64,000 bases of DNA from Clostridia bacterium (lineage in GTDB: Bacteria; Bacillota; Clostridia; Oscillospirales; CAG-272): assembly GCA_017504205.1 (NCBI GenBank), contig JAFVRO010000022.1, positions 35,292-99,291 of the forward strand, written 5' to 3'. Below the pieces are notes generated by a model, which was not told the DNA's origin, ran no database searches, and saw only the letters and a list, made by a program, of their open reading frames with translations. How positions within the stretch are numbered: the first letter of the stretch is position 1; the number at the start of each line of letters is the position of its first letter. Of this stretch, positions 1,312 to 26,728 are shown piece by piece. A program made the translations under genes and the position numbers.

Positions 1312-2328
1312 ATGGATCATACCAAAGATTATTTTTCCGTCAATACACTCGCTCCTGAGTGCGAGGAATACGTTACCGTGTTTTTTAAAAAGGTTGTTGG
1401 ATCTAAATCCGACGGATTTGCAGTGATCAACAACGGAAAGGTTTTTGTGATTGACGTCGGCACAAAAAACGACGTTGAACTGATCAGTTTTCTACTTGAT
1501 CTGCGCCGTAAATGGATCGGAGATAGTCTTGACCCAAATGACGTCACTGCAAAGCTTGAGCTTACAGTGATCATATCGCACGCACACCCCGACCATATGG
1601 GAGCACTCCCCCTTCTTATAGACGACGAACGCTTTTGCATAACGAAGCTTTATGCTCCGGAGCGCTCATGTTTGAGTTATGACGTGCCCGGAATGCTCCT
1701 TCCTCTTGCAAGATACGAAAACAGATTCGACAGTATTTGTGAGGAGCTTCCGAAAAAAGGCCACACGGCAAACGGTATTACGCGGATACCTTACGGCATG
1801 CCTTACTTTGTTTCGTCGGAAGGCGAAGACTTCGTCTTGAAAATATATCCTTCGCATATCGATTGGTCAGAGGACCGTCATTCTGATAAAGAGGGTCTTC
1901 GTTTTATCCTCTCCAATAATTCGCCCACCTATAAGGACCATCCTGAAAACGGTTACACAAACGGGATTCTCAACGGAAATTCGCTTTGGGTCAAGGTGGT
2001 AAAGGGACCTCATTCCGTGCTTATCACAGGAGACCAAAGATCCTCCGATGAAATGCTTGGCTCCATGATCCGCTACTACGGCGAGTATGAATTCGTTTGC
2101 GACGTACTAAAAATACCGCATCACGGCGAAAAGAACTACTCACCGTACCTACTCAGCGTGGCAAACCCCAAATTTACCGTGTTTACCACGTCTATTGAAA
2201 ATGCAACCCCCGATACGGTCAAGCTCTGTGAGAAAATGGGATGCGTCAATTACTACACTCGCGATGGAGATCTGCTCCTCCGTATAGGTCAAAAAGAGAT
2301 CGAGGCCTTCGGCGTCGAACCCCGTTAA
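1312..2328 (+). CDS. MBL-fold metallo-hydrolase
   Basis: HAHPDHMGAL (HxHxDH) motif and a distal PHHGE motif. RBS aaggag lies upstream of the ATG. Confidence 0.7.
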   Translation: MDHTKDYFSVNTLAPECEEYVTVFFKKVVGSKSDGFAVINNGKVFVIDVGTKNDVELISFLLDLRRKWIGDSLDPNDVTAKLELTVIISHAHPDHMGALPLLIDDERFCITKLYAPERSCLSYDVPGMLLPLARYENRFDSICEELPKKGHTANGITRIPYGMPYFVSSEGEDFVLKIYPSHIDWSEDRHSDKEGLRFILSNNSPTYKDHPENGYTNGILNGNSLWVKVVKGPHSVLITGDQRSSDEMLGSMIRYYGEYEFVCDVLKIPHHGEKNYSPYLLSVANPKFTVFTTSIENATPDTVKLCEKMGCVNYYTRDGDLLLRIGQKEIEAFGVEPR

Positions 2329-2367
2329 CCGAAGAAAGTTGACAGAATTTTTTCACATAAAATATAA

Positions 2368-2407
2368 ATCAGCAGTAAATCGTACTTCAGTTTACTGCTG
2401 ATTTTTG
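2368..2407. terminator. Hairpin terminator between convergent genes
   Basis: atcagcagtaaa / tttactgctgat 12-bp stem followed by TTTT. An A/T-rich run on the other side could serve the minus-strand gene. Confidence 0.6.
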
Positions 2408-2485
2408 GCGTTGTTTTGAATCCGCGCCTTTTAAACTGCTTTTTGCCTGTCCTCAGAAAATCACGTTTTGCTTGACAGAATGCAA

Positions 2486-3160
2486 TTACAATACCCCAAA
2501 CAGAATAAACCCAACGGTATTAATCGCAAAATTAGCAAACATATGAACGAACCATGACGGATATATATTATCATTTAACTCGTTAAGATAATTAAAAATG
2601 CATCCGCCAATAATCAACCCTGAAAGCAGTAAAATTATCATACCCGGATTGAACATCTCTATCAGCATCCCAACGTGATAGACGGCAAACAAAACGGAGC
2701 TGAATATATAAGCAATCCCTCTCGTTGTGTACTTTTTCAATGTGATAAAGCCGTAGCCCCTGAAAAAGAATTCCTCAAGAAATGAATTCATCAGTGAAAT
2801 GTATAAGGATACATAGATAAAATTATCAGCCGTGATCCCCATGCCGTCAGTCAGCGCGGATGTGACGTTGGAGTAATCAAATAAATTTCTCGTCAGAAAA
2901 TAACCGCACAAAATGACTGCATATACCCCGATGCCGAGCAGTAATGCTTTGCATATTCCACTCCACTTGAAAAGAAATAATGATTTAAAGTCCTTGATTG
3001 CATCTCTGTTCCTGATAATAAACAGTATCGGCAGAGCAAGAAAGAAAATTATTTTGATCGGTACCTTGACGAAATAACTCGGACGTACAAAGGCGTCGAT
3101 CAAAGTGACCGAAATGGAGAATATAAAAACCGATATCATAATTGCTGCTTTTCTGTTCAT
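2486..3160 (-). CDS. CPBP family intramembrane glutamic endopeptidase (CAAX protease-like)
   Basis: Multi-TM protein with EEFFFRGYGF and FAVYH motifs. Confidence 0.75.
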   Translation of the reverse strand: MNRKAAIMISVFIFSISVTLIDAFVRPSYFVKVPIKIIFFLALPILFIIRNRDAIKDFKSLFLFKWSGICKALLLGIGVYAVILCGYFLTRNLFDYSNVTSALTDGMGITADNFIYVSLYISLMNSFLEEFFFRGYGFITLKKYTTRGIAYIFSSVLFAVYHVGMLIEMFNPGMIILLLSGLIIGGCIFNYLNELNDNIYPSWFVHMFANFAINTVGFILFGVL

Positions 3161-3177
3161 GGTACATCCTCCGTGCG

Positions 3178-3894
3178 TCAGACCGCCTTTGATCCTGCTG
3201 CGCGTGAAAGCGCATCAAAGCCCTCTTGGATAGCTTCGTTTATTATCTTCTGTCCTTGCTCATTTGGGTGAATTCCGTCTACGCAGATAAGCTCTTCAAT
3301 GCGGCGATGCGAAAGGAAGGCATCACGAAGGTTTATAAGCGGAGTTCCCGTGTCTCTTGAGATCTCCTCGATTCTGCGAGAATACGTCTCCTGGTATCTG
3401 TATATCGCATTTTCATCGCCAAGCCATTCAAGAATACTGTCACGGGATAATCCGTCGCGACATATCCATCTAAGATACCTGGAGGCCGATACGGGCGGAA
3501 GGTTTGCCATTACGGGTTTGATTCCTTCTGAACGAAGATAGCTTATCAGCTCATAATAGGAACATGTAAATTTGTCAAGCGGAGTGAAGGGAAGATGCTC
3601 GTCCCTCGGAGATGCCGCAACCGCCTTCCAGTTGAAATCACAGTCGTTTCCGCCGTACTCAAGAAAAATGTAATCGTATTTTGCCCCCTCGTCGATTCTC
3701 CTTTTTATCATTGCAACACCCTTGTCAATGGTGCAGCCGACTCGTGAAAAATTTTGTATCTCAATGGAGTACCTGTCAGCAAGCTCGGGTATTCTCAAAC
3801 CGTCCGACAAAATGTATCTCTCCCTTGACGGACTGAATACCAGCCCCTTCATTATCGAATCTCCAAATATTGACAGTATCTTTTTTGCGTACAT
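3178..3894 (-). CDS. SGNH/GDSL hydrolase family protein
   Basis: N-terminal FGDSIMKG (GDS block), GGNDC block and DGIHPN block. Confidence 0.75.
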   Translation of the reverse strand: MYAKKILSIFGDSIMKGLVFSPSRERYILSDGLRIPELADRYSIEIQNFSRVGCTIDKGVAMIKRRIDEGAKYDYIFLEYGGNDCDFNWKAVAASPRDEHLPFTPLDKFTCSYYELISYLRSEGIKPVMANLPPVSASRYLRWICRDGLSRDSILEWLGDENAIYRYQETYSRRIEEISRDTGTPLINLRDAFLSHRRIEELICVDGIHPNEQGQKIINEAIQEGFDALSRAAGSKAV

Positions 3895-5579: not shown

Positions 5580-6761
5580 ATGGTAAGATTGTTTGCAAGC
5601 AAAAGAGGAATAACGGAAGAGCTCCTCAATATAGTGATGCTCGTCGTCGTCGCACTCGCAGTGATTTCGATCACACTGTGTATTTTTGTTATAGGACGAT
5701 CTATGCCCTCCGATACTCCTGAAGATTCCGACCCCGTTGCGGATTTTCCTTCGTCGGAAAGCACCGACCCCTCCGTTGAATTCCCCGAAGATTCAACCAC
5801 CGTAACTGACGAACCTGAGTCAGATACCGTTGCCATAACCGATACCGATACCGATACCGAACCATCCTCGGAATCTGATAAGCCTACCGAGCCACCTACG
5901 GAGAGCGAGACGGAGCCCACTGCTCCTCCAATGCCGGAATCATTCGTGCCGGTTACCCCGGATAATGTGTCTGTCATAAGCGCCAACGCCATATATTCCG
6001 ATCACGCAATACTCGTTGAGTGTTCTACCAATAAGGTTTTGGCACAACGGCTTGCTGATTATAGAATATATCCTGCTTCAATGACCAAAATAATGACGAT
6101 AATTGTTGCCTGTGAGCAAATTAAGGATCTTGACGCACGCCTGACTATACCGTCTGCAATAATAACTCAATGCCGCGCCGAGGGGGCATCCGTTGCAGGA
6201 TTTACCGCAGGACAGTCTGTTACCGCGCGTGATATGCTGTACGGAGCCGCTCTTCCATCCGGAGCTGATGCAACATTCGGCCTTGCAATGCTCGTGACGG
6301 GCAAAACGGATATTTTTGAGGCAGAGTCTGAATTTGCAAAGCTTATGAACCAAAAGGCAAAAGACCTTGGAATGACAAAGACCACCTTTGTGAACGCAAG
6401 CGGCTTGCACAATGATAACCACGCCTCAACCGTCAGAGATGTAGCAACGATGATGAACTACGCAATGCACGTCCCACTTGTAAAGCAAATACTTTCAACG
6501 GTTCAATACACTACATCATACGGTAAAACTCTCACAAGCTCTGTGTTTTCGAAAACGTCTTACGCTCACCAGACGTATTCTAACGGTGTTACTATGGTTG
6601 CAGGAAAATCGGGATTTACCTATCATGCGATGTATTGTCTTGCCTCTTATCACGAAGCTGAAAATGGTAAAGGCTACGTTCTTGTTACCGCCCTCTCATA
6701 TCAGAATTCTTATCAACCAATATCCGATGCGAAATATATCGTTGAAAACTATATAAAATAA
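5580..6761 (+). CDS. D-alanyl-D-alanine carboxypeptidase (peptidase S11, serine-type) with low-complexity N-terminal linker
   Basis: N-terminal TM anchor, a D/T/E/P/S-rich linker, the SMTK (SxxK) active-site motif in PASMTKIMT, and a later SGL(H)N region. Confidence 0.75.
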   Translation: MVRLFASKRGITEELLNIVMLVVVALAVISITLCIFVIGRSMPSDTPEDSDPVADFPSSESTDPSVEFPEDSTTVTDEPESDTVAITDTDTDTEPSSESDKPTEPPTESETEPTAPPMPESFVPVTPDNVSVISANAIYSDHAILVECSTNKVLAQRLADYRIYPASMTKIMTIIVACEQIKDLDARLTIPSAIITQCRAEGASVAGFTAGQSVTARDMLYGAALPSGADATFGLAMLVTGKTDIFEAESEFAKLMNQKAKDLGMTKTTFVNASGLHNDNHASTVRDVATMMNYAMHVPLVKQILSTVQYTTSYGKTLTSSVFSKTSYAHQTYSNGVTMVAGKSGFTYHAMYCLASYHEAENGKGYVLVTALSYQNSYQPISDAKYIVENYIK

Positions 6762-20625: not shown

Positions 20626-20705
20626 GCTTATTGTGAGTGAAAAGGTTGACTTATACGAAACAATATGATATAATGAGAGTGCAAAAAACTTTTTGGAGAA
20701 CTATT

Positions 20706-21509
20706 ATGGAGAATAAAAACATTATCGGCTTGCGACTTCACTTCTGTAAGCTCAAGCCCAATAACAGCTTCTATACCAATCAGTGCCCGAATCTATGCGA
20801 GTATACGATTATTGACTGCACGTCGCGAAACCAAGAGTTGTGTCAAGATCTGTCACCGTTTTTTCTCGGTCCTGTAACCGGTACGGACGGCGCAACGGCA
20901 TCAACAGTCGAAACCTTTTTCCAGTGCGGAAAGGTATATCCTTGCCACGATAACGGAGGCACTCCTACAAAGGCGTTTTTTGAGTGGAGAGATATGATGT
21001 ACAGAAAAGCGATCGGTGAGCTTTCAAAGGACGAGCTTCGCCATCCGCAACGTCAGCTTGGATATGAGGCAAGCGACTGCCTCTATTTCCCTTGGTATGA
21101 TGAAAGTCAGGGGAAATACATTCCCCTTGATTATGTAACCTCCCGAAAAAAGGTTTATATTCCGAATTATGCGCGTCTTGTAAGCCAAACCGAAACATTT
21201 AAAGAATTAAAAGCCCTTGTGGATAAAGGTAAAAAAATAGCCTTGGCTGACTTTGATACTTACAATTATTATGACGAGAACGCCATGAAAAAGAAATTCA
21301 TGTCTTATATAAACAAATGTAAAAAGGATCACGTTGAACCATCCGTCACACTGGATGATTTCTTGAGAATTAAAAGTATGAAAGATGTTTTCAGCTGCTC
21401 TTTCATGCCTGCCGGCCACGCGTTCGTGATCAAGGCTCTCCTGCAAGGTGACCTTGAGGTGACAGATAGCGGCGTGGTTATTGACCGTGGGATGGTTCTC
21501 GGTATATGA
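20706..21509 (+). CDS. Hypothetical protein with a possible divergent NADAR (YbiA/DUF1768-like) core
   Basis: DLSPFFLGPVTGTDGATASTVETFFQCGKVY aligns by eye with E. coli YbiA FSNFAAWPIKVDGKTWPTSEHYFQAQKF. Its own promoter is TTGACT-17-TATAAT at 20646-20674, so the start is the ATG at 20706 (RBS ggaga). Confidence 0.35.
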   Translation: MENKNIIGLRLHFCKLKPNNSFYTNQCPNLCEYTIIDCTSRNQELCQDLSPFFLGPVTGTDGATASTVETFFQCGKVYPCHDNGGTPTKAFFEWRDMMYRKAIGELSKDELRHPQRQLGYEASDCLYFPWYDESQGKYIPLDYVTSRKKVYIPNYARLVSQTETFKELKALVDKGKKIALADFDTYNYYDENAMKKKFMSYINKCKKDHVEPSVTLDDFLRIKSMKDVFSCSFMPAGHAFVIKALLQGDLEVTDSGVVIDRGMVLGI

Positions 21510-21649
21510 GAATTGACAGGATGTGATAGACGTGTTATGCAAAAATGCATTTGAAAAATCAAGCTATAAAGAACAGAGCATAAACGAAAGGATATAAGCA
21601 ATGCCCCGGCTCGAACTGTTAAAACAAAAGTGTCTGAGTGTGAAACCGC

Positions 21650-21678
21650 TTGAAAAAACGTACGAGGTGTGATATAAT
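21650..21678 (+). promoter_or_regulatory. Sigma-A type promoter of the EVE-nuclease gene
   Basis: TTGAAA, 17 nt, TATAAT. Confidence 0.55.
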
Positions 21679-21695
21679 TATAACAACGAAACGAG

Positions 21696-22856
21696 GTGAG
21701 CATTGTGGCTGAAAAGAAAGAAAAACAATATGCGAGCGATAATGCTAAACAATGGGATTTGGGCAAGAACGATGAGTTAAAGTGCGATTTTATTAATGCA
21801 CATATTAATAACATTAGTTTCCCTAAAACCATAGAGCAACTTGAAGATTTTATCTACAAACATGGTTGCTACAACGTAGAAGATGTGCTAAACGAAGCAG
21901 ATGAAGGTTATACCGTTTGGACAGTTCCTCGTAGCAGTGTTGTTGGCGATGTTGTCATATATTTCCATGCAAAAACTGCAATACAATGGATAAGAAAACT
22001 GGAAACCGCTACCAAGACTTTGGACCCTAAAATGCATGACAAGAATCTTTTGGTTGAATGGCTTCAACGGGCACGAGCTTTGTACTCATTATATGGTGGC
22101 AAAATTTTTGCTATAGGTCGGATTAGTAGCAGACCAGAAAAAGAGGACGAGCTCGAGTTTCAGCAACATTGGTCTGGTCGAATTTATGCTGATGTAAAAG
22201 ATTTGTATTTACTAGAAACTCCTATTGATATTTCGGAATTCAATTCTTATATTTTGGTTTCACGGCAAAGTGCAATAACTCCTTTACCTTCGAAGGAATT
22301 TGAAAAACTAAAATTGCTTATAGAAAGAAAAAACCCTAATGCCCCAAAATGGTTTTTAGAGAGTAATATTGGTGACAATATGCTCTCGAAGGTAAATCAA
22401 AACAACTTTTTAGAAATCACAAGTTCGTACCGAAAAAGATTCCCGTTAGAAATCAATTTTCGATCATATTATGTTGACTATTTTTTGAAAACGTTATCTG
22501 GCAAAAATGTTTATAGAGAATGTATATGCCACACAGCGAAAACACCTTTGGCACGTGTTGATAATGTGTTTGAGTTTGATGGTAAAAGGATATTGTTAGA
22601 GGTAAAGCTCAATATTGAGTTGGAAGATGACTTAATCTCTCAACTGCATCAATACATATATGCTGAATATATTTGTTTGTCAAATGTCCCCAACCATAGC
22701 ACAACGTACTTTGAGAGGGATTTTATGTTTGTCATAGATGTGTACTCAATGTATAGGTACGATGTAAAAGACAAAAAACTTAACAAGATATTTGACTTGG
22801 ATGAAATAAAAAGCAAAAACGATATTATAACCAAAATGCGAAATGCGACAATGTAA
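21696..22856 (+). CDS. Two-domain protein: PUA/EVE-like N-terminal half fused to a RecB/Cas4-type PD-(D/E)xK nuclease (candidate modification-dependent restriction enzyme)
   Basis: Nuclease motifs are D289 (ARVDNVF), E302-x-K304 (LLEVK) and Q316-xxx-Y320 (QLHQY). The N-terminal half has the pattern GDVVIYFH..IFAIGRISS..YADV..PIDISEF..PLPSKEFEKL. The gene is visibly AT-rich. The true start may be the GTG at 21705. Confidence 0.5.
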   Translation: MSIVAEKKEKQYASDNAKQWDLGKNDELKCDFINAHINNISFPKTIEQLEDFIYKHGCYNVEDVLNEADEGYTVWTVPRSSVVGDVVIYFHAKTAIQWIRKLETATKTLDPKMHDKNLLVEWLQRARALYSLYGGKIFAIGRISSRPEKEDELEFQQHWSGRIYADVKDLYLLETPIDISEFNSYILVSRQSAITPLPSKEFEKLKLLIERKNPNAPKWFLESNIGDNMLSKVNQNNFLEITSSYRKRFPLEINFRSYYVDYFLKTLSGKNVYRECICHTAKTPLARVDNVFEFDGKRILLEVKLNIELEDDLISQLHQYIYAEYICLSNVPNHSTTYFERDFMFVIDVYSMYRYDVKDKKLNKIFDLDEIKSKNDIITKMRNATM

Positions 22857-24018: not shown

Positions 24019-24438
24019 ATGAAAAAAGTAATCGTCAGTGCCTGCCTGTTGGGCGAAAACTGTAAATACAACGGCGGCAACAACTATTGCTCCGAAGTCA
24101 TAAAATATATTCAGGGCAGAGAAGTGATCCCCGTTTGCCCCGAGGTTCTTGCAGGCCTTGGTACGCCGAGAACTCCCATCGAGATCCGCGACGGCAAGGT
24201 GTATGATAAAAACGGCGTGTGCGTCGATGCCGCAATCTGCGGAGCAGTAAAAAGCATACTGGACTCCATCGAGCCCACCGAAATCGAATGCGCAATATTG
24301 AAATCCCGAAGCCCCACCTGTGGCGTAAAGCAAATACACGACGGCACTTTCTCAGGCACACTCATTGACGGTATGGGTACCCTTGCCCGCGCCCTCTCCG
24401 ACGCCGGAATAAAGGTTGTGGACTCCGAGGACGTTTGA
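24019..24438 (+). CDS. DUF523 family protein (2-thiouracil desulfurase-like)
   Basis: N-terminal VIVSACLLGENCKYNGG and a later CPE..GL..PR block typical of DUF523. Confidence 0.7.
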   Translation: MKKVIVSACLLGENCKYNGGNNYCSEVIKYIQGREVIPVCPEVLAGLGTPRTPIEIRDGKVYDKNGVCVDAAICGAVKSILDSIEPTEIECAILKSRSPTCGVKQIHDGTFSGTLIDGMGTLARALSDAGIKVVDSEDV

Positions 24439-24464
24439 TAACATGTATCAATAGATAAAAACAA

Positions 24465-24840
24465 CGAGAGTGCATATAGCGTGATGTCGTTAGCGGAGAA
24501 TTAAAAAAACACCATGAAGTGCGAGCATCGCATTTGACCGGTCAAACGTATTATGGGCTAAGCCCAAACCCTTATAACAAGCAGAAAAAGCAAACACGCA
24601 AGGCATAAGACCTTATGTGTCTGCTCTTTTTCTGTCGGTTTTAGTTTGGAGTTATGAGGCTCGCTATGCTCGCCGTTATGAATTTGATGCGCAATTGTTA
24701 TGATATGATTGCCCTACTAACCTATAACTTGGCGAAGCCAATCATAACTATGCGAAGCATATCATAACTCATAACTTGCCCTAGGGGCAATCATAGTTCA
24801 GCGTGATACTCCGTTAAGAGTATCACGCTATACACTCTCG
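24465..24840. repeat. 376-bp non-coding element bounded by 19/21-nt inverted repeats, containing heptad repeats and mini-hairpins
   Basis: Left end cgagagtgcatatagcgtgat versus the reverse complement of the right end, cgagagtgtatagcgtgat. 3x GTTATGA, 3x TCATAAC plus 2 degenerate copies, and two exact GCGAAGC cores. See findings. Confidence 0.6.
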
Positions 24841-24871
24841 CCATTTTTTATTTACTTTAACCGCAAAAATA

Positions 24872-26728
24872 TTACGGCACTTGTCGGTACTTTTCCGACT
24901 GCAGATAAAACATCTCGGCGTATTTTCCACCCTTTTCAAGCAACTCGGTGTGGCTGCCTTCCTCGACTAAACGTCCCGTATCAAACATATAGATACGGTC
25001 CGCAATCCGCGTGGTGGAAAGTCTGTGCGATATGAATATTACCGTCTTGTCCTTCGTGCCGTCCAGGATGGATTGATTGAGATTGTACTCCGCCATCGGA
25101 TCAAGCGCACTTGACGGCTCGTCCATAATGATTATCGGATAATCCCTTGCAAAAGTTCGCGCAATTGCCACCTTCTGAGCCTCACCGCCCGAAAGGTTTG
25201 TGCCCGTATCGTCGAACTCCCTCGTCAGATGCGTTTTGATACCCTTTTCCATCCGTCCAAGCCTCTCGGTAAAATCCGCCGACTCAAGCGCACGGTATAC
25301 GGTATCCTCGTCTCCGTCGACGTATTCTCCGTTCATTACGTTCTCAGCAACCGACGTCGCAAATATCTTGTAATCCTGGAAAACCGTGCCGATCATTTGC
25401 CTGTAAGCCGTCGGCTCGAATTCGCGTATATCGATGCCGTTGTAAAGTATTACGCCCTCGGTGGGATCGTACAGACGCATTATAAGCTTTATCAGTGTCG
25501 TTTTTCCCGCACCGTTGTATCCGACAAGAGCGATCTTATCACCGCGCCTGAAGCTGAGATTTACGTTCACCAATGCCTCACGCCCGTCACCGTCACTCTT
25601 TTGCACCTCGTGATCCTCGTCGTGATATTTGTACTTCGGGTGCGCCGAGAACTCGTAAGAGAAGCCGACTCCCCTGAATTCAAGACTTTCAAATTCGGGT
25701 ATGTCTGTGCGCCCCTTTTGTATGCGCGGCTCAAATCTCAAAAACTCAAGATACTTTTCTATGTACAGCGAATGCTTGGGGTATTTCGTCAACCTCTCGA
25801 TAAGATCGGTCAGCAACCAACGTATCTCCCATATGACCGATACGCTCGCCGCAAAGCCGCCCACCTCAAGGCTTCCCGCCGACAATAGCGTTATCATATA
25901 AATTATAATGGAATAAAAGGTAAGATCCCCGACCGTGTTCCATCCCACACCGTAAAGCCAGAAATAGAGCTTTCCGTACTTGCGCTCGCACGCTACCATT
26001 TTTTCGGTGTTTTCATCATACTCACGCATCAGAAGCTCGTCCGCGTGACGGATGCGTATCTCCTTTGCATAATCAGACAGATGATAAACACGGTTGATAT
26101 AATCCTTCTTGCGTTGAAGCGGATTCATCTCCTTGCTCTGCTTGAAGCTGACCTTGTTGCCTATAAGGTTGCAAACAACGGTTATACAGGACGATGAAAA
26201 CAGTATCAATGCAATTATCGGATCTATCGTGATAAGTATTCCAAAAAGCGTCAGGGACGAAACCGTGCGGCTTATCAGCTTTCCCGTGTCCTCAAGCACC
26301 TCGATGGCTCGCTTGTCGGACTCGTTCATTGCCCATACGAAGTCATTGTAAAACTCCGGATCATCAAAGCAGGAAAGATCAAGCGACTGCGATTTTTTGA
26401 ACAACTCCTCGTGCATCTTAAGATGCAGTCTGTCACGCATAAGCGGATTGTGTATTTTCCAATACCACCTGTCAAACGCATACGCAAAAGCGTAAAATAA
26501 CGCCATAACGCCAATAATTTTAAATGCGTACGAAAGCTCCGCTCCTCCGTCAACCGCGTTGAGAAGGGAATAAGAAAGCATTGCCGCCGCCGAATTGATG
26601 ATACCCCATACAAGCCCCTCTACTATCATAAGTAAAAAGTAGTCAGGCGTGTAGCGCGCGATTTTTCCAAGCATAATCAAATTGTTTTTGAATATTGAAC
26701 TTAATTTTTGCCTTTGCTTTTTAGCCAT
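24872..26728 (-). CDS. ABC exporter, fused TMD-NBD half-transporter (second subunit of a heterodimeric pair)
   Basis: 6-TM N-terminal domain, Walker A GYNGAGKTT, signature LSGGEAQKVAIARTF, Walker B IIIMDEPSSALD. Confidence 0.9.
   Translation of the reverse strand: MAKKQRQKLSSIFKNNLIMLGKIARYTPDYFLLMIVEGLVWGIINSAAAMLSYSLLNAVDGGAELSYAFKIIGVMALFYAFAYAFDRWYWKIHNPLMRDRLHLKMHEELFKKSQSLDLSCFDDPEFYNDFVWAMNESDKRAIEVLEDTGKLISRTVSSLTLFGILITIDPIIALILFSSSCITVVCNLIGNKVSFKQSKEMNPLQRKKDYINRVYHLSDYAKEIRIRHADELLMREYDENTEKMVACERKYGKLYFWLYGVGWNTVGDLTFYSIIIYMITLLSAGSLEVGGFAASVSVIWEIRWLLTDLIERLTKYPKHSLYIEKYLEFLRFEPRIQKGRTDIPEFESLEFRGVGFSYEFSAHPKYKYHDEDHEVQKSDGDGREALVNVNLSFRRGDKIALVGYNGAGKTTLIKLIMRLYDPTEGVILYNGIDIREFEPTAYRQMIGTVFQDYKIFATSVAENVMNGEYVDGDEDTVYRALESADFTERLGRMEKGIKTHLTREFDDTGTNLSGGEAQKVAIARTFARDYPIIIMDEPSSALDPMAEYNLNQSILDGTKDKTVIFISHRLSTTRIADRIYMFDTGRLVEEGSHTELLEKGGKYAEMFYLQSEKYRQVP

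Follow-up and report, generated by a model that had tools for sequence, protein, structure and literature searches.

In the 23S ribosomal RNA (rRNA) of Coxiella, the apex of helix 45 is occupied by an intervening sequence (IVS), a selfish element of 428-444 nt. It is closed by a 28-bp terminal inverted-repeat stem, which is cut by RNase III, and contains an open reading frame (ORF) for an S23p four-helix-bundle protein with tandem heptamer repeats upstream. Its origin is unexplained; according to an old proposal, the ORF serves mobility (PMC4990558). Terminator-like content is known from the pneumococcal repeat SPRITE (PMC10969869) and is shared by the element described here. This element lies in a 64,000-nt stretch of DNA from a Clostridia bacterium (in the following, the window), in the gap between convergent genes for a DUF523 protein and an ABC exporter. 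With a probability of about 75%, it is a non-autonomous member of a mobile family whose copies are embedded in terminators. Judged from sequence, the most suitable description of the window copy is a gene-less derivative of a selfish cassette family, similar to miniature transposable elements with inverted repeats (MITEs). The family represents widespread and, as it seems, undescribed small repeat elements of gut Clostridia at the tips of terminator hairpins.

The assignment to terminators is derived from the sequences that surround the copies. Outside the terminal repeats, the flanks differ from locus to locus, and the two flanks of a given locus are reverse complements of each other. Such locus-specific inverted-repeat flanks are found in about three quarters of the copies. 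In the consensus of 60 copies, an A-run precedes the left flank and a T-run trails the right one. Between the two flanks of these 60 copies, the longest stretch of perfect complementarity has a mean length of 9.4 nt compared to 6.2 nt for flanks paired across loci. Three examples illustrate the arrangement:

Locus L021: AAAAACTCTCCGT[...]ACGGAGAGTTTTT
Locus L022: AAAAGGCCGAAGCGC[...]GCGCTTCGGCCTTTT
Window: AACGAGAGTG[...]CACTCTCGCCATTTTTT

At least one gene 3' end adjoins the element in 45 of 48 classifiable contexts, 25 of them being convergent. In tandem contexts, the orientation of the element is unbiased (8 vs 12). From the locus-specific complementary flanks, the A- and T-runs and the gene 3' ends nearby, it is concluded that an ordinary intrinsic terminator, in many cases a bidirectional one, has the element at its apex. 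The repeated unit itself, delimited by sequence comparison, is about 360 bp long (approximately 24473-24832), and homology of other copies to the window copy spans about 24479-24838. The parts of the window copy and its neighbours are as follows:

24019-24438, plus strand: gene for a DUF523/2-thiouracil desulfurase (Pfam PF04463, E = 6.5e-40), reading into the element
24455-24464: A-rich tract ATAAAAACAA before the host terminator stem, at the place of the A-run in the consensus of 60 copies
24465-24472: left arm of the host terminator, CGAGAGTG, outside the repeated unit; the family homology ends further in
24473-24501: left terminal inverted repeat CATATAGCGTGATGTCGTTAGCGGAGAAT, predicted to form a 16-bp long-range helix with the right end
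24517-24546: conserved core AAGTGCGAGCATCGCATTTGACCGGTCAAA, holding the hairpin GCATTTGA-CCGG-TCAAA
24554-24566: hairpin TGGGC-TAA-GCCCA (-7.0 kcal/mol), followed by a AACCCTTATAAC box
24581-24637: internal bidirectional terminator-like hairpin, flanked by A- and T-runs
24643-24714, plus strand: motif arm with three GTTATGA copies (24651, 24675, 24697) and short spacers or hairpins between them
24722-24797, plus strand: anti-motif arm with three TCATAAC copies (24742, 24762, 24769), degenerate copies at 24722 and 24791, and mini-hairpins at 24729-24741, 24749-24761 and 24776-24790
24800-24832: right terminal inverted repeat, either a local 12-bp hairpin (24800-24829) or paired with the left end
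24833-24840: right arm of the host terminator, CACTCTCG, complement of 24465-24472 and locus-specific in other copies
24843-24853: T-rich tract TTTTTTATTTA after the host stem, at the place of the T-run that follows the right flank in the consensus across copies
24872-26728, minus strand: gene for an ABC exporter (Pfam PF00005), reading into the element from the opposite side

Most structural details of the original prediction, which a model had made from the letters of this stretch, were recovered. The element was indeed placed between two convergent genes, whose distance is 433 nt. The inverted ends proposed at 24465-24485 and 24822-24840 are present and can be extended to 44 nt at 70% complementarity. 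They had been regarded as one terminal repeat: this holds for the inner part, which is the element's own, while the outer 8 bp are the arms of the host terminator. All six exact heptads, the two degenerate ones (24722-24728 and 24791-24797) and the five palindromes (the three mini-hairpins of the anti-motif arm, 24554-24566 and 24533-24546) were found, as was the hairpin with a 12-bp stem at 24800-24829 (-19.6 kcal/mol). The suggestion that the 3' arm of this hairpin could alternatively pair with the distant left repeat is in agreement with a 16-bp end-to-end helix predicted in the alignment fold. The exact heptads are clustered: Six of the 19 occurrences in the entire window, where 8.9 are expected, are packed into 125 nt. 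Their spacing including the degenerate copies is irregular (24, 22, 26, 19, 20, 7 and 22 nt).

The internal hairpin at 24581-24637 has a folding energy of -23.6 kcal/mol on the plus strand and -27.6 kcal/mol on the minus strand (z = -4.7 and -5.2) and is followed by the tails CTCTTTTTCTG and GCTTTTTCTGC. With a stable GC-containing stem and a U-run on both strands, it qualifies by sequence as a putative intrinsic terminator. A simple terminator scan gave no call for it, probably because of its bulges. Given the position of the two convergent genes, their transcription must run on into the element, and the internal hairpin would be the first terminator-like structure met by each polymerase. The original prediction had stated that the remainder of the element is not needed for termination. 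This is correct, but it was missed that the terminator is a conserved module of the element and that the element in turn resides within a terminator owned by the host. The coding capacity of the window copy is limited to short unconserved ORFs of at most 38 aa. One of them (24654-24767 or 24666-24767, plus strand, 37 aa), which extends across the heptad arm, was considered as a gene or toxin. It is most likely spurious, since other contigs did not reveal it and conservation as a coding sequence is lacking. An ORF in the heptad arm has been annotated publicly as a 33-aa gene (locus L002).

A comparison with the nearest related species (locus L015) provides an empty-site-like situation. There, the DUF523 protein is 88% identical, the gene order is the same, and the gap comprises only 93 nt. 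It holds a plain terminator, AAAAAATAAATAGAGTGCCCCACGCCGGGACACTCCTTCTTT (AAAAAATAAATAGAGTG..CACTCCTTCTTT), whose stem base AGAGTG/CACTC and A-run match the flanks in the window. We propose the following scenario: The element would have entered a pre-existing bidirectional terminator common to the DUF523 and the ABC exporter genes. It would be tolerated, as both terminator arms were left intact and a replacement terminator was supplied, so that both convergent transcripts would still stop. The element presumably moves, or once moved, via functions provided in trans by other elements or the host. Such a selfish strategy, if true, would consist in hiding in a terminator loop, sparing the host stem and bringing a two-way terminator along. 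Close to the element, a second insertion or deletion distinguishes both species: A DUF6939-like gene and the next gene, which encodes a 386-aa protein without Pfam match (window 20637-22856), are absent from the otherwise syntenic L015.

To determine the range of the family, the exact 20-mer 24527-24546 was searched in one genome per species. It occurs at at least 119 loci in at least 80 assemblies, at least 27 of which have two to four copies each. Among the matches listed, nearly all hosts are uncultured Clostridia, Eubacteriales or Oscillospiraceae from the gut of sheep, goat, deer and yak. A second scan anchored at the right end yielded 71 more loci in metagenomes, some of them from human gut. 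The neighbouring genes differ between copies. Sixty complete copies have a length of 246-538 nt with a median of 370 nt. The family is multicopy and widespread, and the 64-kb window contains a single copy: pattern search, blastn and nhmmer revealed no further one. In the literature, whose coverage was incomplete, no description of this family or of terminator-targeting MITEs was found.

These data bear on the possibility that the element is not mobile at all: an expansion of a terminator hairpin, inherited vertically and diversified in place like the expansion segments of rRNA. As would be expected for such an expansion, every copy has kept the outer stem, a mobility enzyme was not detected, and all sampled contigs of the window species have an identical copy. 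Against it, near-identical modules are located behind unrelated genes in at least 80 species, several copies and module classes occur per genome, nearly identical gene-carrying versions (see below) reside at different loci, and the syntenic relative L015 lacks the element. Vertical expansion has, therefore, only the slightest chance of being correct.

The shared modules are also visible in short-read assemblies (k = 31). Five independent Logan contigs that come from the DUF523 side all end at 24546, and three from the ABC exporter side end at 24802/24803 (several independent samples; loci L004-L009 and L012-L014). The contigs break at these positions because the adjacent 30-mers are shared with other family copies. 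An invertible segment was considered as the cause of the breaks and rejected, as the break-point sequences are not inverted copies of each other. The family is a systematic assembly breaker for metagenomes of ruminant-gut Clostridia, acting at fixed 30-mers. In addition, the element is liable to be mistaken for a small RNA gene or a small ORF in annotations.

On the plus strand, the order of modules is left repeat, core, GGGC-TAA-GCCC hairpin, internal hairpin, motif/anti-motif arm and right repeat. The terminal inverted repeats are about 25 nt long, with the consensus AAaGGGTGATGTTCTTAGCGGAGAATT on the left and, reverse-complemented, TTAGCGTGaTAtcCTTAACGGAGaAta on the right (60 copies); the sequence of the element end is GCGTGATACTCTTAACGGAG. 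The TGGGC-TAA-GCCCA hairpin is conserved in an alignment of 115 sequences, with some compensatory variants (TTGGC/GCCAA, GGGT/ACCC). The internal hairpin is present in nearly all copies; its stem exists in three versions or more, and compensatory changes are seen. In the motif arm, a motif of 7-8 nt is repeated three to four times and followed by three to four copies of its exact reverse complement, with small hairpins between all of them. No fewer than eight versions of the motif were distinguished, and each is accompanied by the exact reverse complement of its own sequence. Among 62 complete elements, they were counted as follows:

GTTATGA (the class of the window copy): 11 copies
GTGAAGT: 11 copies
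TGAATTG: 8 copies
TGAAATC: 7 copies
TGATGTT: 5 copies
GCGATAT: 4 copies
TCGATAT: 2 copies
TGATATT: 2 copies

Motif versions coexist within one genome, e.g. in RGIG5523 (loci L027, L065 and L138). The core hairpin was evaluated in copies anchored at the right end, which are free of the bias introduced by the 20-mer anchor. Its stem covaries, and the loop and the apical pairs vary (TTTGACTAGTCAAA, TTTGTAAGTACAAA, TTTGTATGCACAAA). The block composed of the GGGC hairpin and the core is found in both orientations. Two other candidate helices, a pairing of the left end with a CCCTTAT box and a CTTAGCGG/CCGCTAAG stem, were discarded, as no consistent covariation was seen. A possible resemblance of the core palindrome to CtsR or Noc/ParB sites was considered and dropped, as the central bases vary and the stem covaries.

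Several copies carry additional sequences. An insert of about 45 nt (..GAACCCCCAAAGCTCATGCTTCGCTTCGGGGAACCCC..) was observed at varied positions and in both orientations, one in L023, L108, L110, L115, L124 and L078, the other in L074, L134, L135 and L173; it is also present in L205 (860-900). It looks as if it were a still smaller mobile hairpin nested in the family. In L096 (about 6300-6650 of the oriented copy), the motif arm holds an inverted pair of sequences that terminate in GGGTTCGACTCCCGTGCGGCTACCA, which resembles the 3' end of a tRNA or tmRNA, and in the complement thereof. L119 (602-862) has an 86-aa ORF of unassigned function in place of the motif arm, and in L188 (5289-6176), a gene of the SUKH-3 immunity family lies between two ends. 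The right-end hairpin (GCGTGATATTCTCCGTTAAGAATATCACGC) was also seen solo after a gene and with a T-run, in L163 (about 6329-6348, human gut) and L206. This may be a simple terminator or a solo remnant.

Longer relatives were identified by searching all fetched loci for end pairs more than 600 nt apart. Long elements comprise 1.1-1.4 kb and are complete in L166 and L158 and partial in L139 and L205. Each of the four carries a gene for a protein of 118-128 aa that belongs to PF05635, '23S rRNA-intervening sequence protein' (E = 5e-28), and to TIGR02436, 'four helix bundle protein'. The closest solved structure is PDB 2RLD (E = 3e-30, five chains). The protein is very abundant: More than 7,500 clusters were obtained at E < 1e-20, the identity of the top 120 being 86% or higher. 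Genes with 86-99% identity are present at different chromosomal sites (L216, L226, L227 and L231). On the sense strand, a long element starts with the A-run and the host arm, the end hairpin, four copies of a degenerate motif, four of the anti-motif and mini-hairpins. A predicted promoter (TTGACT-17-TATAAT) and a ribosome-binding site precede the gene, and directly past its stop codon GGGGTATGGGC..GCCC and the GCATTTG..CAAATGC core are located. These are followed by a second, variable ORF, a terminator and the opposite end, and finally by the host arm and the T-run. The long elements with both ends have locus-specific host arms (L226 leaves the contig after the gene):

L216: GAGCATACGG / CCGTATGCTC
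L158: GATAACAC / GTGTTATC
L227: AAAAAACGGCCTG / CAGGCCGTTTTTT
L231: AAAAGGCGCGCCA / TGGCGCGCCTTTT

L227 and L231 use a different end hairpin; thus, the ends themselves are modular. The right-end hairpin of the window copy and the end hairpins of L166, L158 and L157 are identical over 28 nt. In addition, the minus strand of the window copy is colinear with the long layout: end hairpin, motif arrays, GGGC hairpin with core, other end. As a terminator hairpin stands in the place of promoter and gene, the window copy is best regarded as a gene-less miniature relative and not as a simple deletion product. A four-helix-bundle gene was found neither in the window copy nor elsewhere in the 64 kb. The long element of L227 (1536-3267) is found immediately upstream of a further gene for a DUF523/2-thiouracil desulfurase, which might be a coincidence. 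Two candidates for an autonomous, transposase-bearing copy were rejected: The IS3-type transposase gene of L101 (about 2090-3600) is an unrelated insertion in the internal terminator, and in L093, two separate ends surround host genes. The MITE-like nature suggested in the original prediction fits these observations, as the element occurs in multiple copies, lacks an ORF, is bounded by terminal inverted repeats, shares its ends with longer relatives and is replaced by an empty-site-like terminator in a related species.

The element is highly structured. The whole gap folds far better than shuffled sequences (z = -8.9 and -7.5 on the two strands). In an alignment fold of 12 copies of the window class, the 16-bp end-to-end helix, the pairing between motif and anti-motif arms and the small hairpins were predicted, and 13 of 102 predicted pairs show double compensatory changes. 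The stem of the internal terminator contains eight pairs with four to five compensatory double changes each, and the second mini-hairpin displays seven compensatory changes among 12 sequences. This covariation shows selection for complementarity without telling which molecule is selected. In single-stranded form, transcript or DNA, the motif/anti-motif arrays and the mini-hairpins would fold into a rod, an architecture that may be analogous to that of the rRNA IVSs cleaved by RNase III.

Such structures could reflect a conserved non-coding RNA (ncRNA) family, either 3'-UTR-derived (UTR, untranslated region) or free-standing small RNAs, with the copies as paralogous RNA genes. Besides the strong folding and the compensatory changes in the terminator stem, the mini-hairpins and the core hairpin, a nearly invariant 30-nt core in at least 80 species, the presence of GNRA and C(GNA)G loops in the right arm on one strand and three consensus G.U pairs in the end-to-end helix would be in accordance with an RNA. 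Promoter-like hexamers are present on the minus strand (24817-24790), but such hits remain at the shuffled level (2 found, 1.3 expected). The strand comparison does not favour an RNA either: Single mismatches in the helices comprise 132 of the G.T type, which are tolerated on the plus strand, and 137 of the A.C type, which are tolerated on the minus strand. By folding energy, a weak test, the minus strand of the right arm is favoured by 2.6 kcal/mol. The orientation with respect to neighbouring genes is random, the segment of GGGC hairpin and core occurs in both orientations, and in parts of the left module, the variation takes the form of discrete blocks that substitute for each other and not of covariation. 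In Rfam, no relevant match was obtained: At the gathering score, the window contains four tRNAs only, all of them elsewhere, and when E values up to 10 were allowed, the region was hit best by a plant microRNA model, which matches the terminator hairpin. Because of the symmetric mismatches, the random orientation and the small energy difference between the strands, a functional RNA is not claimed, and we regard it as unlikely. Of the structured RNA considered in the original prediction, the covarying helices persist, but strand symmetry and the negative Rfam search speak against it.

Strand symmetry would be compatible with structure at the DNA level. An element active as single-stranded DNA (ssDNA), of the palindrome-associated IS200/IS605 kind, or an ssDNA origin might use mini-hairpins like d(GCGAAGC). 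Many C(GNA)G triloop hairpins are present, and hairpin apexes are single-stranded targets. GCGAAGC itself does occur twice (24732 and 24752), and the original prediction had regarded the two exact copies as a meaningful pair and as a possible origin or transposition site. The first assumption does not hold, and the second is not supported. The heptamer occurs in the window as often as expected by chance (12 observed, 11.3 expected), and both copies sit in one duplicated 20-nt unit. In homologues, GCGTAGC, ACGAAGT, ACAAAGT or GCAAGGC are found at the mini-hairpin sites, and the stems have changed compensatorily. The conserved feature is the mini-hairpin; the heptamer GCGAAGC itself is not conserved. 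Furthermore, the element has true terminal inverted repeats, in contrast to IS200/IS605, and lacks a conserved target tetranucleotide; no gene for a Y1 transposase or TnpB lies in or next to any copy, and phage collections gave no match. An ssDNA element or origin is thus highly improbable.

The heptads might alternatively constitute a protein-binding array on DNA: operator-, centromere- or iteron-like sites for a ribbon-helix-helix-type or a four-helix-bundle protein. The motif copies within one element are identical, beyond what base pairing needs, and in long elements, the array is located immediately upstream of the TTGACT -35 box and overlaps it. In four phyla, heptamer arrays also border other, unrelated genes that encode proteins of the four-helix-bundle family (see below), and the Coxiella IVS has heptamer repeats upstream of its ORF (PMC4990558). 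On the other side, eight different motifs exist with several per genome, the sequences between the heptads are well-formed hairpins whose stems covary, a typical sign of single-stranded folding, and the heptads are irregularly spaced. The ribbon-helix-helix operator of the original prediction is not supported, as the heptads are not contiguous, the motifs differ among family members of the same genome and such a gene is lacking next to the element. Neither a DNA-binding gene beside the window copy nor a four-helix-bundle gene in the 64 kb was found. Taken together, a binding array is very unlikely.

The interpretation as a non-autonomous member of a mobile, terminator-embedded family also faces counterarguments. 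The sole empty-site-like comparison relies on a shared stem base of 6+5 nt between two species whose neighbouring proteins differ by about 12%. The junctions are A/T-rich (AAA/TAA/ATA) and reveal no consistent direct repeat, although the palindromic context hides short duplications; nor do the 60 copies have a fixed flanking tetranucleotide. The core is conserved far beyond the expectation for junk DNA, which may indicate a further function. In the window copy, the terminator hairpin stands at the position of promoter and gene, whereas the long forms terminate further downstream. No copies that could explain the spread across species were found in the phage, plasmid and viral collections searched. 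Genes for a transposase, recombinase or reverse transcriptase are absent inside all copies and long relatives, and none was seen adjacent to a copy. Because no mobility enzyme was found, we infer mobility from the distribution of the copies only.

Heptamer arrays beside four-helix-bundle genes are not confined to this family. Six TIGR02436/PF05635 genes were sampled from plasmid records of four phyla (L210-L215), and all six have flanking arrays upstream and the complements downstream:

Bernardetia: TTAGTGA (15 copies) upstream, TCACTAA downstream
Euhalothece: ACCAGTG upstream, CTGGTCA (13 copies) downstream
Nostoc: TAATTCG (4 copies) upstream, ACGAATT (4 copies) downstream
Planktothrix: AATCGTA upstream, TTACGAT downstream
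Treponema: GAAAGNG upstream, CTCTCCG downstream
Monoglobus: decayed gene within a type I restriction operon, enclosed by an inverted repeat of 24 nt

The cyanobacterial arrays resemble the classical tandem heptamer repeats. No literature link between four-helix-bundle proteins and heptamer arrays was found; as the coverage of the literature was incomplete, the link may be known. A tentative, rather doubtful extension is that rRNA IVSs, the terminator-embedded elements of Clostridia and the heptamer-flanked four-helix-bundle genes of Cyanobacteria, Bacteroidota and Spirochaetes belong to one class of cassettes that invade hairpin apexes. Such a class would be built around four-helix-bundle genes (S23p/TIGR02436, Avd-like) and inverted heptamer arrays, and its cassettes would home to the tips of stem-loops by structure and not by sequence. 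By analogy to the Avd-assisted homing of diversity-generating retroelements (DGRs), this might perhaps proceed through an RNA or a reverse-transcription step. Possibly, the wider class might also explain the old puzzle of the cyanobacterial tandem heptamer repeats. If true, it would provide a common testable frame for the origin and movement of rRNA IVSs, the role of the abundant 'four helix bundle / S23 ribosomal' proteins and the recurrence of heptamer arrays beside their genes.

MITE-like repeats and rRNA IVSs are already known as kinds of elements. What appears to be new is, firstly, the target, as the elements occupy the apex of intrinsic terminators that are specific to each locus, secondly, the spare terminator brought along together with motif arms in eight versions, and thirdly, the connection of miniature repeats with four-helix-bundle gene cassettes and rRNA IVSs. 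Other described systems are more distant. With a modular unit of about 360 bp, the element differs from REP/REPIN sequences, which are palindromic units of 20-40 nt, occur singly or as inverted pairs and are associated with a RAYT gene. IS200/IS605 elements and their palindrome-associated derivatives lack terminal inverted repeats, have subterminal hairpins and insert 3' of a fixed tetra- or pentanucleotide; here, terminal inverted repeats are clear, and a fixed flanking tetranucleotide is missing. In contrast to Omega operators of the pSM19035 type, which are bound by ribbon-helix-helix proteins and in which heptads of a single consensus adjoin each other beside the gene of the regulator, the heptads are 7-26 nt apart with hairpins between them, and the motif varies between copies. 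IS1397 and ISKpn1, which enter the loops of REP palindromes, and class C group II introns, which enter at terminator stem-loops, use a hairpin or palindrome as a landmark. Their target is a repeated REP sequence or a site just after the stem, not the apex. They also encode a transposase or a reverse transcriptase, neither of which is present in the element. DGR homing needs a hairpin or cruciform at the target, and the DGR accessory protein Avd is a four-helix-bundle pentamer which we take to belong to the same fold family as the protein of the long elements. The association with a hairpin target is shared, but no reverse transcriptase and no template or variable repeats were found near any element.

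MITEs and mosaic intergenic repeats (BOX, RUP and SPRITE of pneumococci, Correia elements of Neisseria, ERIC, bcr1) are much closer. Like them, the element is small, non-coding and multicopy at unrelated sites, with conserved terminal inverted repeats, an intergenic location at gene ends, strong folding and longer relatives that share its ends; like BOX, it is modular. In apparent contrast to MITEs, the longer elements that share these ends code for a four-helix-bundle protein plus a small ORF that varies, a recognisable transposase is missing, and target-site duplications were not seen. Furthermore, the insertion position is apparently set by structure and not by sequence, and the core is conserved across many species, not within one genome. 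The rRNA IVSs of Coxiella, Leptospira and Salmonella (helix 25/45) were compared by description. They differ from the window copy in their location: The element lies between protein-coding genes in a region without rRNA, and its host structure is the terminator hairpin of an mRNA. The window copy has no PF05635 ORF and contains an internal terminator, which would be intolerable in an rRNA insert. At the same time, IVSs and the element have much in common. Both are a few hundred nt long and of unexplained origin and mobility, some IVSs carry a PF05635 ORF as do the long relatives of the window copy, and in both cases, the apex of a pre-existing stem-loop of the host is occupied by an insert that is closed by its own inverted-repeat stem.

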